The notes beneath the pieces are model-generated. The model searched no databases, was not told the DNA's origin, and saw nothing but the letters and a program-made list of their open reading frames with translations. Both the position numbers and the translations under genes were made by a program. From NCBI GenBank assembly GCA_963832165.1, contig CAWHTE010000007.1, forward strand, positions 672,001 through 736,000: 64,000 nt of DNA, read 5' to 3'. Shown piece by piece: positions 16,627 through 44,527 of this stretch. Position 1 is the first letter of the stretch. The number at the start of each line of letters is the position of its first letter. This DNA is from an uncultured delta proteobacterium. Its GTDB lineage: Bacteria; Myxococcota_A; UBA9160; SMWR01.

Positions 16627-17961
16627 CTAGCGCCCTTCGTTCACGAGCGCTTCGAGCTCGTCCGGATCCTTGGGAATCGAAAGCGTCAGATTCTCGTGGC
16701 CGTCGGCGGTGATCAAGATGTCGTCCTCGATCCGAACGCCGATGCCGCGGAAGCGCGCATCCACGTCGGCGTCGGCGGCAATGTACAGACCCGGCTCGAC
16801 CGTGAACACGATCCCGGGAGCGAGCGGCCGCGGTGCTCCGTCCTGCCGATAGCTGCCCACGTCGTGCACGTCGAGCCCGAGCCAATGGCTCGTGGAGTGC
16901 ATGTAGTAGGGCTTGTAGGCCTCGCGCGCGGCGAGCTCTGCGGGGTCGCCCGCGAGAATGCCGAGCTCGACCAGACCCTCGACGAGCGCCTTCACCGCGG
17001 CGTCGTGGATCTCCGGCAGCGTGCTGCCCGGGCGGCACTGCTCGATCCCCGCCTGCTCGGAGGCGAGGACCACCTCGTAGATCGCGCGCGCGGGCCCCGT
17101 GAAGCGTCCGCCCACGGGATAGGTACGCGTCACGTCCGAGGCGTAGCCCTCGAGCTCGCAGCCCGCGTCGATGAGCACCAGCTCGTCGTCGCGCAGCTTC
17201 TGATCGTTGCGCACGTAGTGCAGCACGGTTGCGTTCGCACCGCCGCCCACGATCGTGGTGTAGGCGGGTCCGCGCGCGCCGCGCCGCCGGAACGTGAACT
17301 CGAGCGCGGCCTGGAGCTCGTACTCGAATGTGCCGGGCCAGGCGAGCTTCGCGGCCGCAGCGTGGCCCTCGCGGCTGATCTGCGCGGCGCGCCGCATCAG
17401 ATCGAGCTCGGAAGGGTCCTTGAACAGCCGCATCCCGTGCGTGATCGAGCGCGCATCGACGATCGCGTCGGCGGGATCGGCATTCATGCGCGAGCGCACG
17501 CGCATCTGATCGAGCGCCGCGACGAGTCGCGCGTCGAACGCGGGATCGCGTCCGAGCACGTGGTAGATGCGCTGCGCGCTGCGGATCAGGTCGGGGATCT
17601 TCGCGAGCAGATCGGTGTTCGGATGCGCCTCGTCCGCTCCGAAGTCCTGGATGGCGCCCTCGGCCCCAGGTCGATACCCATTCCAGATCTCGAGCGCGCG
17701 ATCGCGCGGCTCGACGAACAACGTGTAGGCGGGACCGCCGTCGGTGCGCAGCACTGCCGTGGCGCCCGGGTGATCGAATCCCGTCAGGTACCAGAAGTCG
17801 CTGTCCTGGCGGAACGGGAACTCGGTGTCGCGCGAGCGCGTGACCAGATTCGCGCCGCGGAAGATCGCGACGGCGCCGGGGCCCATCGCATCGCGCACTC
17901 GTTGGCGGCGTTCGGCGAACACGCGAGGAGGATACGGGGGAGCGTGTTGCCCTTCAATCAC
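16627..17961 (-). CDS. pepP: Xaa-Pro aminopeptidase P
   Basis: FRQDSDFWYLTG, DAGCE...SDVTRT, HWLGLDVHD, TVEPGLY and GVRIEDD motifs; start uncertain. Confidence 0.93.
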   Translation of the reverse strand: MIEGQHAPPYPPRVFAERRQRVRDAMGPGAVAIFRGANLVTRSRDTEFPFRQDSDFWYLTGFDHPGATAVLRTDGGPAYTLFVEPRDRALEIWNGYRPGAEGAIQDFGADEAHPNTDLLAKIPDLIRSAQRIYHVLGRDPAFDARLVAALDQMRVRSRMNADPADAIVDARSITHGMRLFKDPSELDLMRRAAQISREGHAAAAKLAWPGTFEYELQAALEFTFRRRGARGPAYTTIVGGGANATVLHYVRNDQKLRDDELVLIDAGCELEGYASDVTRTYPVGGRFTGPARAIYEVVLASEQAGIEQCRPGSTLPEIHDAAVKALVEGLVELGILAGDPAELAAREAYKPYYMHSTSHWLGLDVHDVGSYRQDGAPRPLAPGIVFTVEPGLYIAADADVDARFRGIGVRIEDDILITADGHENLTLSIPKDPDELEALVNEGR

Positions 17962-19103
17962 GGCGCGTCGACACAAACGACGGTCACGTCTGCGCAGTAG
18001 GTGACGCACATGCGATCGCCGTACAGGACGCCCGTGTAGTAGAGGCCGGCCGGGTCGGGCCGCGGAAGTGCAGCGCTGCGCACGCGCCCGTCGGGATGCA
18101 ACACGTGCACGATCCCGCTCCAGCGCGTCACCACGACGCGCCCGTCCGGAGCCACCTGGATGTCCTGCGCGAAGTCGAGCTCGGGCGCGAACGCGTCGTC
18201 GAGCGGCACGCGCTTCGGCTCACCGCGTCCGGGCGGCGGCACGACCTCGAGCCACAGCGCGTTGCCCTCCGCCTCGGCGCGGTAGATCGTGCCGTCGCGG
18301 GCCTTCGCCGCGAACAAGAGCTCGGGCGGCTCGGGAACGATCCGCGCCCGGCCGCTCGCGTCGATCGCGATCGCATCCTGCCGCGCGCCCATCTGTGCAT
18401 TGGGCTGCGCGCCGAGCGGGAGCTGGTCCGCCGTGATCCAGAGCTCGCGGCGCAGGCCGTCCCAGAGCGGCGTCTTGGGCGCCACGCGGTAGCCCGGCGG
18501 CGCGACGAGCGACCAGAGCTTCACCGTGTGGCCGTCGCGATCGAACGCGATCGCGTCGCCGTTGCCGCCGTCATCCGCGCCCGTGCCATAGCGCGTCGCG
18601 ATCACCGTTCCGTCGGGACCCTCGCCAAGCTCGTTGAGCGCTCCGCCGAGTGCGAGGCGCCGAACCTGTCCGGTCGCGGGCGACACCGCCCCCGCGTCCT
18701 CGAAGAATGTGGTGAAGTAGACGTCGCCGTCTGCTCCCACGAGTACGTCCCATACGCCGGATCGGCTGTCGGGACCGCCCACATCGAGCGGCGGGAGCCA
18801 GCGTTCGCGCACGAGATCGAAGCGGCCGATCCGCTGCGGCCCGGGATGCCGCAGGTCGGCCGTGGGGTCTCCGCCCGCGCCCGCCATCGCCGACCAGAAC
18901 GCCGCCTCGCCGAAGTACAGGACGCCATCCACTCCGCGCGCGCCGTACCAGGCGCAGTAGCGCTCGTCCGCGCTCGGAGCCCTCGCGACATGCATGGACA
19001 CGTTCGCGGCGCGCGGGAACGGCGCCGCGGGTTCGCGGGCCGCGCCGCTCGCGCACGCGAGCGCTGCCAGCGTGGCGAGCGCCGCGCACGCGCTCCGCAG
19101 CAT
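17958..19103 (-). CDS. Hypothetical lipoprotein, probably beta-propeller-like
   Basis: Signal peptide with lipobox-like AALA-C; repeated DG-x-V/I/L-Y/V strands; TGA/GTG overlap with pepP. Confidence 0.6.
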   Translation of the reverse strand: MLRSACAALATLAALACASGAAREPAAPFPRAANVSMHVARAPSADERYCAWYGARGVDGVLYFGEAAFWSAMAGAGGDPTADLRHPGPQRIGRFDLVRERWLPPLDVGGPDSRSGVWDVLVGADGDVYFTTFFEDAGAVSPATGQVRRLALGGALNELGEGPDGTVIATRYGTGADDGGNGDAIAFDRDGHTVKLWSLVAPPGYRVAPKTPLWDGLRRELWITADQLPLGAQPNAQMGARQDAIAIDASGRARIVPEPPELLFAAKARDGTIYRAEAEGNALWLEVVPPPGRGEPKRVPLDDAFAPELDFAQDIQVAPDGRVVVTRWSGIVHVLHPDGRVRSAALPRPDPAGLYYTGVLYGDRMCVTYCADVTVVCVDAP

Positions 19104-19303
19104 GCAGCTTCGCATGGCTGCGCATCTATTGGCGGCACCAGACTTAAGCATTTGTTTTCGAATGTGTTTCTCTCCAACTCGATCGCGGTCCGCATTCTCA
19201 CGCTGCCCGCAGCGCAGCCTGAGGATGCGGCGCGCCCTCGGCCCCGCCGCGCGGAATCTCAATAGAGGCGCACAGTTGCGATTGCTGCCTTGTGCGCCGG
19301 CCC

Positions 19304-19319
19304 TGGCACGCTTCGTGCT
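19304..19319 (+). promoter_or_regulatory. Sigma54 (-24/-12) promoter
   Basis: TGGCACGCTTCGTGCT matches TGGCACG-N4-(T)TGCW with exact GG-N10-GC spacing, in an intergenic region. Confidence 0.75.
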
Positions 19320-19329
19320 CTTCCATGGG

Positions 19330-19535
19330 ATGACAGGAAATGGGATTGGTCTGGTGCGGACCGATCGGACGGAAGCGGGCGCGCACGGTCGATCGAGTCC
19401 GGACCTCAGGCACCTCCCGGGTTATATCAAAGGCGACTTCCCCAGAACGGCACCCGCCTTTTTTCCGGGCGAAAGCCAGGTTCCAGATCAGAACGCCCCT
19501 CCGACGGAGGTTCCGTCGGGGGGGCGTGTCGTTTT
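19330..19535 (+). ncRNA. Candidate sigma54-dependent structured small RNA
   Basis: Lies between the sigma54 promoter and a 16-bp hairpin with a T-rich tail; has internal stems and a GAAA tetraloop; no convincing ORF. Confidence 0.5.
19493..19535 (+). terminator. Strong hairpin/intrinsic terminator (may also serve the convergent rnd)
   Basis: ACGCCCCTCCGACGGA-GGT-TCCGTCGGGGGGGCGT (16 bp, one G-U pair) followed by GTCGTTTT. Confidence 0.75.
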
Positions 19536-19547
19536 GGGAGACGCCCG

Positions 19548-20717
19548 TTAGGGGCGCCCGCCCTCCCGGGCTTCGCGCGCTTCGAGCGCCACGGTCACGA
19601 CCTCGGCGCCGAACTCGCGCAAGAACCAGCCCTTGAGCTCGGGGAGTCCCTCGAGGTCGCTCGCGGTGTTCGGCGCGCGCCAGGCGATCGCTTCGAGCGC
19701 GGAGTTCGGACACAGGACGCCCGGGTCGAGCGCGAGCTGCTGAGCGCGCTCGGCTCGCCAGCGCTTGAGCGCGATCAGCCGCCGGTCTGCGTGGCGGTCC
19801 ATGCGGCGCCGCCCGCTCGGCGGGAGCTTCGGGATCGGGCCGTGCTCGTCCGCGCGCCCGTCGCGCACGGCCGCGAGCACTTCGCGCCCGAGCCGGCGCA
19901 AGAGCAGATCCGTGATGCCCTTGATCTCCGCCAGTTCCGAGAGCTTCTTCGGACGCCGCTCCGCGATTTCGATCAGCGTGCGATTCCCGAGCACCTTGAA
20001 CGGCGGCCGGTCCATCTCTCGCGCGCGCCGGTCGCGCACCAGATACAGCGCGCGCAGCACCGAGAGCGCCTTCGGATCGAGCTTGCGCGCACCCTTGATG
20101 CGCAGATAGCCCAGCTCGTCGAACTCGCGGTCGGGCCAGCGCCGTCGGCACAGCGCCTCGAACTCTTCGACGGCCCAGCGGTTCCGCTTCACTTCCTTGA
20201 GCTCGCGCCACAAGAGCTCGGCGAGCGGAAGCAGGTAGAGCACGTCGGCGGCCGCATAGCTCATCTGCTGTTGAGTGAGCGGGCGGCGCGACCAGTCGGA
20301 GCGCTGCTCGTCCTTGGGCAGGTTCACGTCGAAGTGACGCGCTGCGATTCGCGACAGGCCCACGGACGGATAGCCGAGCAGCTGCGCCGAGATCATCGTG
20401 TCGAACAGGTTCGCGAACTGGAACGAGCAGTCGCGCTTGAGCACGAAGATGTCGTACTCGGCTGCGTGGAAGACCTTGCGGATCTCGGGCGACGCGAACA
20501 CGGGCCCGAGCGGCGCGAGCTCGGCGGGGCCTCCGAGCGCGAGCGGGTCGATCAAGTAGATCTGCCGGCGCGTGCCGATCTGGACCAGGCAGGTCTTGTC
20601 GAAATAGTGATAGAAGCTGTCCGCCTCGGTATCGACGGCGATCACCTTCTCGCTCATCAGATCGTGCGCGAGCGTTTCGAGATCCGCGCGGGTCTCGATC
20701 AGTTCGTAGTCCGCCAC
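19548..20717 (-). CDS. rnd: Ribonuclease D (DEDDy exonuclease with two HRDC domains)
   Basis: AVDTEADS, KVFHAAEYD, SDWSRRPLT and YAAADV motifs; HRDC DRPPFKVL; GTG 20717 after GAGGG. Confidence 0.93.
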   Translation of the reverse strand: MADYELIETRADLETLAHDLMSEKVIAVDTEADSFYHYFDKTCLVQIGTRRQIYLIDPLALGGPAELAPLGPVFASPEIRKVFHAAEYDIFVLKRDCSFQFANLFDTMISAQLLGYPSVGLSRIAARHFDVNLPKDEQRSDWSRRPLTQQQMSYAAADVLYLLPLAELLWRELKEVKRNRWAVEEFEALCRRRWPDREFDELGYLRIKGARKLDPKALSVLRALYLVRDRRAREMDRPPFKVLGNRTLIEIAERRPKKLSELAEIKGITDLLLRRLGREVLAAVRDGRADEHGPIPKLPPSGRRRMDRHADRRLIALKRWRAERAQQLALDPGVLCPNSALEAIAWRAPNTASDLEGLPELKGWFLREFGAEVVTVALEAREAREGGRP

Positions 20718-20925
20718 TCTTTCCCTCAATCGCACCCGCCAATCGGATTGCGGATCGTCTTATCAGCCACGAGGGGGAGGGGGGACGACCAAGACATCCC
20801 GTGATTCGATGGAGGATTCGCGCGCGGGACACCAACACCGCGGGAGGAACGAGGGCGGCGTCAGGGCCGCAAGCTAGCCGACGCGCTGCCCCGGGGAAAG
20901 CGGTGTCGGGGTACTCTCCGCGGCG

Positions 20926-42871: not shown

Positions 42872-44527
42872 TTGCGCCTAGCCTCTCCGCTTATGCTGCT
42901 CGCGACTCTGATCGCGACCGGGGCGGTCTATGCGCAGGTCGCGCGCTTCGAGTTCGTGAGCTGGGACGACCCGCTCTACGTGACGTCCAACGCGCAGGTG
43001 CAGGGTGGCCTGTCGGCAGCGGGCGCGGCCTGGGCGCTGACCTCGCGAGCGGACAGCAACTGGCTCCCGCTGACCTGGCTCTCGCACATGCTCGACGTGG
43101 AGCTGTTCGGCATGTGGGCCGGCGGCCACCACATCACCAACCTGTTGCTCCACGCGATCGACACCGCGCTCTTGTTCGCGCTGTTGCTTGCGGCGACGCG
43201 CGAGCGCTTCGCGAGCGCATTCGTGGCGGCGCTGTTCGCGCTCCACCCGCTCCACGTCGAAGTCGTGGCGTGGGTCTCCCAGCGCAAGGAGCTGCTCTCG
43301 ACCGGCTTCGGGTTGCTCTCGGCGCTCGCCTACGTCGCCTGGACCCGGCACGGCGGAGCCGCGCGCTATGCGGGGTGCGTGATCGCGTTCGCCGCGGCGC
43401 TCGCCTCCAAGTCGATGCTCGTGACGCTGCCGTTCGCGCTGCTGCTGTTCGATTACTGGCCACTCCGCCGCACGCGCTTCGGCGCGCGGGACGCGCAGTC
43501 GACCTCGCCCGCGCTGGCACGGCTGCTGCTCGAGAAGCTGCCGCTGTTCGCGCTGTCGTTCGCGGCGAGCGCGTCCGCGTTCGCTGCACAGCACATCGCG
43601 CGCAGTCACGCGCCGGACGTGCCGCTCGCGCTGCGGCTCGCGCACGCGGCGGTCGCACCGTTCCGCTATCTCGGGCTCGCACTGTGGCCCAGCGATCTGT
43701 CGGTGCTCTATCCGCATCCGTACGCGCCCGAGCTCGGCGGAGAGCCGTGGTCGCACGCGACCGTGGCGGCCGCGGTCGTCGCGCTGGTCGCGATCACCGC
43801 GGGCGTGCTCGCCGCGCGGCGGCGTCCCTACCTCGCGGTCGGCTGGCTCTGGTTCCTCGGCACGCTCGTTCCTGTGATCGGCCTGGTGCAGATCGGGCCG
43901 CAGGGGCTCGCCGATCGCTACACCTACGTGCCGCTGATCGGGCCGTTCATCGCGCTCGCGTGGGGCGCGCGCGACCTGATCGCCGCGCTGCGCGCGCGTT
44001 GGCGCTCCGCGCCGCAGATCGCCGCATCGGCGCTCGCGGCGGTCGCGCTCGCCGCGTCCGGCGCTGCGAGTCACGCGCGCGCGCGCGTCTGGCACGACTC
44101 CGAGAGCCTCTACCGCGCCTCGCTGGCCGCGACGCCGAGCAACCCGGTGCTGCTCTACAACCTCGGCGTCGCCCAGGCGCAGCAGGGCCGGGTCGAGGAC
44201 GCCGTTCGCAGCTACGAAGCGGCGCTCGCGATCGACCCGGGGCATCCGGCCGCCAACACCAACCTCGGAAACATCCGGCTGCGCGCGGGGCAACCCGAGC
44301 GGGCGATCGAGCATTACCGCGCGGCACTGCGCCGGGACCCCGACGACGTCGAGACGCTCCAGAACCTCAGCCGCGTGCTCGCGTGGCGTGGGGAGGTCGC
44401 CGAGGCGCTCGCGCAGCTGGAGCGGGCGGTCCAGCTCGCTCCGGAGAATCCCAGCGTGCGCCGCGACCTGGATGCGGTCCGAGCGGCACTCCCAGGAGGA
44501 GCCGGGAACCCCGAGGCCATTCATTAG
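42872..44527 (+). CDS. TMTC-like GT-C membrane glycosyltransferase with C-terminal TPRs
   Basis: WDD, WLPLTWLS, FALHPLHVEVVAWVSQRKE and ADRYTYVP motifs; TPR repeats. Confidence 0.85.
   Translation: MRLASPLMLLATLIATGAVYAQVARFEFVSWDDPLYVTSNAQVQGGLSAAGAAWALTSRADSNWLPLTWLSHMLDVELFGMWAGGHHITNLLLHAIDTALLFALLLAATRERFASAFVAALFALHPLHVEVVAWVSQRKELLSTGFGLLSALAYVAWTRHGGAARYAGCVIAFAAALASKSMLVTLPFALLLFDYWPLRRTRFGARDAQSTSPALARLLLEKLPLFALSFAASASAFAAQHIARSHAPDVPLALRLAHAAVAPFRYLGLALWPSDLSVLYPHPYAPELGGEPWSHATVAAAVVALVAITAGVLAARRRPYLAVGWLWFLGTLVPVIGLVQIGPQGLADRYTYVPLIGPFIALAWGARDLIAALRARWRSAPQIAASALAAVALAASGAASHARARVWHDSESLYRASLAATPSNPVLLYNLGVAQAQQGRVEDAVRSYEAALAIDPGHPAANTNLGNIRLRAGQPERAIEHYRAALRRDPDDVETLQNLSRVLAWRGEVAEALAQLERAVQLAPENPSVRRDLDAVRAALPGGAGNPEAIH

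Follow-up and report, generated by a model that had tools for sequence, protein, structure and literature searches.

Sigma-54-dependent small RNAs (sRNAs) sit at key decision points in the few bacteria known to have them, among them Qrr of Vibrio in quorum sensing, GlmY and GlmZ of Enterobacteria in cell-envelope synthesis, and CrcZ of Pseudomonas, a genus that also has NrsZ, in carbon choice. Pxr, of Myxococcus xanthus and related Cystobacterineae, holds such a position in multicellular development. Pxr is sigma-54-dependent and is processed by RNase D in M. xanthus (PMC10217877; PMC5568312). It is described as a C-rich sequence of about 111 positions with three stem-loops, whose functional site lies in a loop (PMC5568312), and pxr is placed beside the activator gene pxrR/nla19 (PMC10217877; PMC5568312). 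Here, we analysed a window of 64,000 nt from an uncultured delta proteobacterium (contig CAWHTE010000007.1 of assembly GCA_963832165.1, positions 672,001 to 736,000); the window is this whole stretch, and coordinates refer to it unless a contig is named. Our data strongly support, as far as nucleotide sequence allows, a non-coding RNA on the plus strand, about 205 nt long, that would start at 19330 and end at an intrinsic terminator. Its gene occupies a 432-bp gap flanked by two minus-strand genes, rnd, which encodes RNase D, and a lipoprotein-like gene. An original prediction made from the DNA letters had proposed an undescribed, structured sigma-54 sRNA convergent on rnd, and this proposal held: promoter, structure and terminator recur in more than 100 genomes, the stems covary, no Rfam family matches and the RNA is represented in RNA libraries. 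Judging from the sequence comparisons below, the locus is an independent gene for a previously undescribed family within the known kind of sigma-54-dependent sRNAs, and the computational evidence for it is unusually complete.

The comparison with Rfam proposed at the outset was consistent with an undescribed RNA. Rfam 15, which presumably holds a Pxr model, returned no family at the gathering score over the whole window, and at E ≤ 10 it gave only chance-level, unrelated matches in 19100-19650 (best E 0.3). We also found no published description of the RNA in the open-access literature and bioRxiv, where the Pxr papers were found. The original prediction had correctly described Pxr as sigma-54-dependent and processed by RNase D, as borne out by PMC10217877 and PMC5568312. 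The new RNA resembles Pxr in occurring in Myxococcota, in having a sigma-54-type promoter that would need an NtrC-like activator, and in being structured and C-rich. It differs in size and architecture, with about 205 nt arranged around a three-way junction versus three stem-loops over about 111 positions (PMC5568312). Moreover, its neighbours are rnd and a lipoprotein-like gene rather than an activator gene, and it belongs to another, uncultured order. The link to RNase D is experimental for Pxr (PMC10217877), whereas for the new RNA it is one of gene adjacency. No similarity of sequence or structure to Pxr was detected, Pxr being represented here by its published description rather than by direct comparison of the loci. 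A published Pxr Northern probe (PMC5568312) matched none of 401 genomes of the phylum with up to 3 mismatches.

The layout is also that of Qrr, GlmY, GlmZ, CrcZ and NrsZ, which combine a site for a bacterial enhancer-binding protein (bEBP), often an IHF site, a -24/-12 promoter, an intrinsic terminator and conserved effector segments. The new RNA has no homology to these sRNAs, which mostly depend on Hfq or another protein and do not have its closing helix and three-way junction.

The promoter contains the TGGCACG-N4-GTGCT element with GG-N10-GC spacing on which the original prediction was built, and it was confirmed at the expected place as TGGCACGCTTCGTGCT (Table 1). Matches to the pattern TGGCACGNNNNNTGCT number two in the window versus 0.04 expected. 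The other match, at 43515-43530 (+), lies inside an apparent open coding frame rich in leucine and alanine and is probably a chance occurrence. In a plain MAFFT alignment, TGGCACG-N4-[C/G]TGCT was present in all 20 loci first collected. Of 47 loci confirmed by a covariance model of the RNA (see below), 43 satisfied a strict regular expression for the -24/-12 element, with constant spacing to the RNA, and the other four keep GGCACG. Three of the loci, L047, L053 and L057 of family f12, retain TGGCACG and read GTG[G/T/A]A (GTGGA, GTGTA or GTGAA) rather than xTGCx at -12, which is unusual for sigma-54; in L054 the -24 element is CGGCAC.

Further upstream lies a putative bEBP site in the form of an NtrC-type palindrome. 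With the criterion xGC-N11-GCx and at least 6 of 7 symmetric pairs, such a palindrome was found in 35 of 64 unique loci, versus a mean of 3.1 and a maximum of 9 in shuffled sequences. It typically reads TGCAGCC-N3-GGCTGCA and clusters at about -80 to -117 and -186 to -216. An IHF-like site (WWTYAR-N4-TTR) occurs in 20 of the 64 loci versus 0.31 in shuffles, and in 19 of these 20 it lies at -37 to -42, counted from the T of TGGCAC. The genome itself carries one rpoN (G000 C4:586970, 208 bits) and 26 matches to the bEBP AAA+ domain PF00158, 19 of them strong (≥98 bits); none falls within the window, and the nearest bEBP domain on the contig is more than 100 kb away. All five RNA-less genomes looked at retain rpoN. 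The promoter layout is that of a textbook enhancer-dependent sigma-54 promoter, and it is from this layout that we infer binding and activation.

Structurally, a 213-nt stretch of the locus folds with z = -3.83, and none of 200 shuffles folds as well. The predicted fold is Y-shaped: a three-way junction joins the closing helix P1, the hairpin P2 and the long hairpin P3, which has three sub-helices, and the terminator follows. Most single-sequence folds of the 20 RNAs agree on this architecture. Two helices of the original prediction reappear here as conserved, covarying elements, the proposed closing helix as P1 and the stem 19357-67/19390-401 as P2. The proposed GGC-GAAA-GCC tetraloop at 19468-77 fared differently, as it is not conserved and its bases form part of the 3' strand of P3, where the conserved fold joins 19464-69 to 19416-21 and 19475-77 to 19409-11. 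The 16-bp hairpin with a T-rich tail before the rnd stop was verified, the tail reading GTCGTTTTGG. This terminator is the sole strong terminator-like site in the region and ends 13 nt before the rnd stop codon (19548-19550).

Covariation was assessed in alignments of different origin. In the sequence-only alignment, 83.6% of the cells were paired versus 73.5% in shuffled alignments, and 39 of 60 pairs showed double changes; none of 500 shuffles matched it on any of five measures. Sliding the pairing partners as a control lowered pairing to 31-49%. When 66 sequences were aligned to the model, a procedure that leans towards structure, 86.9% of cells were paired and 52 of 60 pairs had double changes. 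For the outer pairs of P3, double changes were seen in 12 of 14 pairs in the sequence-only and in 14 of 14 in the model-fitted alignment, and for the terminator in 9 of 12 and 11 of 12, respectively. As a replication, we ran RNAalifold on 46 genomes that had not been used for the model together with the window's own sequence. This recovered P1 (GC/AU exchanges in 15 sequences and UA/CG exchanges in 15), the inner part of P2, where a single pair shows as many as 18 double changes, and the terminator. It missed the outer P3 helices, because MAFFT misaligns these variable arms. G-U pairs are frequent, with 18 UG at one pair of P2 in the model-fitted alignment, and are compatible only with the plus strand.

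While the stems covary, the tips of P2 and P3 stay almost invariant. The P2 tip at 19375-19384 (GCG-GGCG-CGC) is nearly invariant, GGGCGCGC is invariant, and the hairpin ends in CGGGCGCG. The apical loop of P3 (19436-19454, CUUCCCCAGAACGGCACCC) is C-rich, 19-20 nt long and nearly invariant, with the family form CUUUCCCC(C)AGAACGGCACCC. Downstream of the promoter, the MAFFT alignment of 20 loci shows the conserved blocks AAGCGGGCGCGCAC, AGGCGCTTTCCCCAGAACGGCACCCCGCC and CCAGATC, followed by the GC-rich hairpin with its T run. Reduced forms of the RNA that keep the promoter were seen in L059 (without P2), L061 (P2 without the conserved tip) and L064 (without P3), and L058 has an A-rich tail instead of the terminator hairpin. 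Since either arm can be missing in a given lineage, the two tips appear to be separable modules. The segments GCGGG and CCCGC, for which a pseudoknot had been considered, are both nearly invariant, so that covariation cannot speak to their pairing. CCCGC shares bases with the 3' strand of the inner P3 helix, and the proposed pseudoknot would compete with this helix.

To map the distribution of the RNA, we used a BLAST search with 19280-19560, which matched 20 genomes among 61 relatives, and built the covariance model R1 from these 20 sequences. R1 found a full-length, single copy in 116 of 151 genomes of the order. This includes 68 of the 90 genomes of high quality and 58 of the 65 genera, with each of the 12 families represented, whereas most of the genomes sampled from g18, g14, g31 and g52 gave no match. 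This count is a lower bound, as genome G077 is unmatched by R1 and has a divergent copy with a promoter beside rnd. Second matches in the window's own genome (G000) and in G021 are echoes of the terminator on the minus strand. Across a sample of the phylum, R1 matched 17 of 24 genomes of the order, none of four in the class's only other family, and one of 123 elsewhere in the phylum, a weak and partial match (E 7.7e-5). Both features that the original prediction had suggested seeking in relatives, a -24/-12 box and covarying stems, were found conserved. Scanning 185,579 species genomes for a motif yielded 49 loci, of which the model confirmed 45; the others (L076, L090, L098 and L107) were set aside as chance matches of the motif. 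The records with a model-confirmed RNA are mostly titled as metagenome-assembled genomes (MAGs) of Myxococcota or Deltaproteobacteria, and several as Spirochaetales, Opitutales, Desulfobacterales or Proteobacteria. These odd depositor titles probably reflect inconsistent taxonomy of the bins.

Table 1. Positions of the RNA gene's elements and of the adjacent genes within the 64,000-nt window.
Feature	Positions	Strand	Remarks
Putative bEBP site, 17-bp NtrC-type palindrome CGCAGCCTGAGGATGCG	19213-19229		91 bp 5' of the T of TGGCAC
Sigma-54 promoter, -24 TGGCAC / -12 GTGCT	19304-19319	+	reads TGGCACGCTTCGTGCT; exact GG-N10-GC spacing
Predicted transcription start	19330	+	sigma-54 geometry from the -12 GC (C19318 = -12)
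Contig 5' ends	19341-19343	+	19341 in X16 and X19, no loose end; adapter joined at 19343 in X15 and X17
P1, closing helix	19347-19354 with 19483-19490	+	4/8 pairs double-changed (sequence-only alignment); 94.6% of cells paired (model alignment)
P2, hairpin	19357-19401 (19357-71 with 19386-401)	+	13/15 pairs double-changed (sequence-only alignment); 15/15 (model alignment)
P3, long hairpin	19402-19482 (19402-35 with 19455-82)	+	three sub-helices
Intrinsic terminator	19493-19535	+	16-bp hairpin 19493-19527, then GTCGTTTTGG; T run 19532-19535
rnd (RNase D)	19548-20735	-	Pfam; convergent on the RNA gene
Lipoprotein-like gene	17958-19115	-	signal-peptide-like N-terminus in translation; transcribed away from the RNA promoter region
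pepP-like M24 aminopeptidase gene	16627-18009	-	Peptidase_M24 3.4e-62, AMP_N 8.7e-35; last gene of the rnd-lipoprotein-pepP block

Sequences of the locus are also present in RNA libraries. In 14 DNA sequencing runs, 20-36% of the sampled words were present, and in 6 metatranscriptome runs 4-7%. Four RNA runs from four studies of soil or rhizosphere were examined (X15, X16, X17 and X19), and in all of them contigs cover 19341-19491 at 85-99% identity, DNA carry-over being formally possible. Word depth on the RNA compared with rnd was 29-39 versus 2.7 in X16 and 283-544 versus 4.6 in X19; these values are per-contig means summed over organisms in runs that were found through the same stretch, and serve as a rough guide only. 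The contigs give a weak hint that the abundant RNA species begins 11-13 nt past the predicted start (Table 1), in which case the RNA would be processed or its start would differ from the sigma-54 geometry. As other genera have about 10 nt less between promoter and P1, the window's genus may make a longer leader that is trimmed afterwards. One contig of 151 nt spans 19342-19491, with an adapter joined after 19479. The complete lack of contig cover on 19150-19338 and 19493-19527 in the four RNA runs weighs neither way, because this stretch had itself served to find the runs, and contigs built from k-mers can break at a 35-nt palindrome.

Taken together, we regard it as probable that the locus is a sigma-54 sRNA gene whose product acts in trans. 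RNA polymerase with sigma-54 would bind the -24/-12 element and, upon a signal that activates an NtrC-type enhancer-binding protein, and only then, would transcribe the plus strand up to the terminator. The activator would sit on the palindrome or palindromes about 90-115 bp upstream, in many loci also about 190-215 bp upstream, and in many relatives an IHF-like site between palindrome and promoter would aid bending of the DNA. The abundant form of the RNA may be 5'-trimmed to about 19341-19343. In trans, the RNA would act by way of its two invariant tips. The P3 loop, which is exposed and rich in C, would base-pair with G-rich mRNA sites, for example ribosome-binding regions, while the P2 tip would be a second recognition site for protein or RNA. 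Base pairing by the P3 loop is favoured because this loop is long, unpaired, invariant and seed-like, and other sRNAs use C-rich loops in this way. For the proposal as a whole including this effector step, we would put the chance at slightly below even.

Several results weigh against the trans-acting sRNA. No IHF site is recognisable at the own locus, and the palindrome there ends in CGC/GCG, not TGC/GCA. The contigs start at 19341-19343 instead of the predicted 19330, and show neither the strand nor the true ends of the RNA. Hfq and CsrA were undetected in the own genome, which is 89% complete, and this makes a classical Hfq-dependent mechanism unlikely. When the P3 loop was compared with 6478 start regions of the own genome, taken from rough GC3-based gene calls, the energies were continuous and no outlier stood out. 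A rigid three-way junction with an invariant, paired P2 tip looks more like an RNA for protein or tertiary contacts than like a base-pairing sRNA. The complementarity to the start of rnd described next was absent in 44 of the 46 loci tested (mean z 0.07), and overall no target, activator or partner protein emerged.

The start region of the own rnd (20700-20750, minus strand; GGCGGGUGC...GAGGGAAAG) is complementary to the P3 loop (19436-19458, plus strand) with -35 kcal/mol and z -4.4, and the same is seen in one congener, G001 (z -2.7). Of 55 loci that include the rnd 5' end, nine were dropped from this comparison where the regular expression missed the loop (7) or the start (2). The start of the rnd mRNA was rejected as a family-wide target of the P3 loop, since it stands out in only 2 of 46 loci. 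Its complementarity within the own genus is either a genus-level acquisition or chance.

The gene downstream of the terminator, rnd, encodes a protein with the DNA_pol_A_exo1 (4.9e-43) and HRDC (1.5e-31) domains of Pfam. Its true start is probably the GTG at 20717 rather than the upstream GTG at 20735. Translated from 20717, the protein begins M-A-D-Y-E, and GAGGGA precedes the codon; relatives keep [T/G]TG-GCN-GAC-TTC-GAG with GAGG upstream, and their N-terminus reads M-A-D-F/Y-E. The motif CCCCCCGG recurs among many relatives 25-50 nt 5' of the rnd start; it could be a regulatory element, or else the 3' half of a terminator lying upstream. Wherever the flank was long enough, in 63 of 63 unique loci, the RNA is followed by a convergent rnd. 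Its distance from the terminator is about 20-150 nt in most loci, and in five (L030, L053, L062, L069 and L082) 0.4-1.6 kb of other DNA lies between the two. On its other side, the RNA is bordered by the lipoprotein-like gene and/or pepP, in the same strand as rnd. The lipoprotein-like protein of 385 amino acids matched no Pfam family; it adjoins the RNA in most loci (about 40-59% identity) and is also present in some RNA-less genomes.

The arrangement of RNA-less genomes is informative as to the origin of this neighbourhood. In G023, G019, G047 and G084, the lipoprotein-like gene and/or pepP come straight after rnd, and such gaps as were measured span 88-130 nt. In M. xanthus, rnd shares a transcript with a peptidase gene that lies downstream (PMC10217877). 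Since the rnd-(lipoprotein)-pepP block persists without the RNA, adjacency to rnd was possibly inherited vertically rather than kept for function, and the RNA gene lies within an older conserved block. That the RNA gene might adjoin the nuclease that processes its product is an attractive idea.

With 6S RNA, the new RNA has in common that it is single-copy, abundant, structured and about 180-200 nt long, but 6S RNA is a rod with a central bubble, whereas the new RNA is Y-shaped and has a sigma-54-type promoter. Identity with 6S RNA was rejected, as the 6S family RF00013 was unmatched at the locus and throughout the own genome and the fold differs. Within the phylum, RF00013 was found in 95 of 127 genomes outside the order versus 2 of 24 inside. 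These two, G050 and G052, carry both 6S RNA and the new RNA, and G023, G047 and G084 carry neither, so that a simple replacement of 6S RNA by the new RNA finds no support. The region of the own genome that is syntenic to the 6S gene of G050 (C5:348900-349900, L131) holds a small membrane-protein-like open reading frame (ORF) and has no Rfam match at E ≤ 1.

These observations bear on an alternative that we hold to be unlikely, though it deserves attention, namely that the locus encodes a stable protein-binding RNA, a sponge, scaffold or component of a ribonucleoprotein comparable to 6S, Y RNA, CsrB or GlmY. The P2 tip and the P3 loop would then be protein sites, and both ends would be matured to P1; a 3' exonuclease, for instance the neighbouring RNase D, would trim away the 3' trailer with the terminator. 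The rigid Y core, closed by pairing of its two ends in P1, would suit such a role, and so would the invariance of the P2-tip pairs while all other stems covary; the fold is nevertheless unlike the 6S rod. That Hfq was undetected agrees with this role too, whereas no partner emerged. The high per-contig depth in RNA libraries fits a stable RNA, and the contig ends just outside P1, together with the 151-nt contig, fit its maturation, but contigs cannot define RNA ends and the length of that contig may mirror the read length. The scarcity of canonical 6S RNA in the order leaves room for an RNA of this type, yet G023, G047 and G084 do without the RNA and without detectable 6S, and G050 and G052 have both. 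As for trimming, rnd is adjacent throughout and RNase D of M. xanthus processes an sRNA (PMC10217877), against which stands the persistence of the rnd-pepP block without the RNA, since adjacency may be inherited. The fuller version of this alternative, an order-specific, abundant protein-binding RNA that would be turned on through a sigma-54 signalling pathway, matured at both ends and trimmed at its 3' trailer by the neighbouring RNase D, appears more unlikely still.

A mainly cis-acting role is improbable: the RNA gene would be an antisense or transcriptional-interference unit, in which transcription from the sigma-54 promoter in the direction of rnd, along with the hairpin that both genes share, would set how far rnd transcription passes into the lipoprotein and pepP genes or how stable the 3' end of rnd is. 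Its opposite-strand position inside a block that is contiguous in RNA-less genomes would agree with this, as would the co-transcription reported for M. xanthus (PMC10217877), and on the minus strand the hairpin has no clean U run, making read-through from rnd plausible. Such a unit would nevertheless leave a covarying three-way junction and two invariant loops across 12 families unexplained, and the five loci in which other DNA separates the two genes keep the RNA. That the RNA is a homologue of Pxr is very improbable. Both are C-rich sigma-54 sRNAs of Myxococcota with a link to RNase D (PMC5568312; PMC10217877), but there was no Rfam match even at E ≤ 10, size and fold differ from those outlined in PMC5568312, the published probe had no match in the 401 genomes sampled from the phylum, and R1 found nothing convincing outside the order. 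Furthermore, no activator gene adjoins the RNA, the nearest bEBP domain being more than 100 kb away. Finally, the 73-codon frame of the original prediction does exist (19330-19551), overlapped by one of 98 amino acids (19340-19636), and tblastn with either gives weak matches in relatives; as a coding gene, it found no support. The matches are equal in two frames, and no forward frame is clearly more open than the other two, which is what 70% GC leads one to expect. Divergence by codon position (0.335/0.367/0.310) shows no third-position excess, 1-nt frameshifting indels occur within the genus, one congener has stops in all three frames, and the ORF product matched no Pfam family. Conservation at the codon level, which would have spoken for a protein, was looked for and gave no coding signal. 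Both ORFs were rejected as the product, and a protein gene whose hairpin merely terminates rnd seems to us barely conceivable.

An order-wide, single-copy RNA with a full enhancer-type promoter, in a large group of uncultured soil Myxococcota, offers a handle on regulation in organisms that have not been grown. Its invariant motifs, the P3-loop CUUUCCCCCAG and the P2 tip, can be used in searching for targets or partners, and the link to RNase D is testable. The RNA merits addition to RNA family databases, which would end the annotation of spurious ORFs in this conserved intergenic block. If the protein-binding RNA trimmed by RNase D were the true account, it would be a second independent case of sRNA maturation by RNase D in Myxococcota, and the RNA might act as a global regulator in a lineage in which canonical 6S RNA mostly escapes detection.

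The signature of promoter and palindrome is likewise usable in finding the activator and its regulon. Only one other sigma-54-like promoter of the own genome, TGGCACGGAGCGTGCT at C2:254327-254630 (L124 228-531), has a similar palindrome, CGCCGCCGCAGGCGGCG, 94 bp 5' of it, and no bEBP gene adjoins this site. The promoter precedes an ORF of 55 codons that has a GGGGGA ribosome-binding site and matches no Pfam family, and which may be co-regulated with the RNA.

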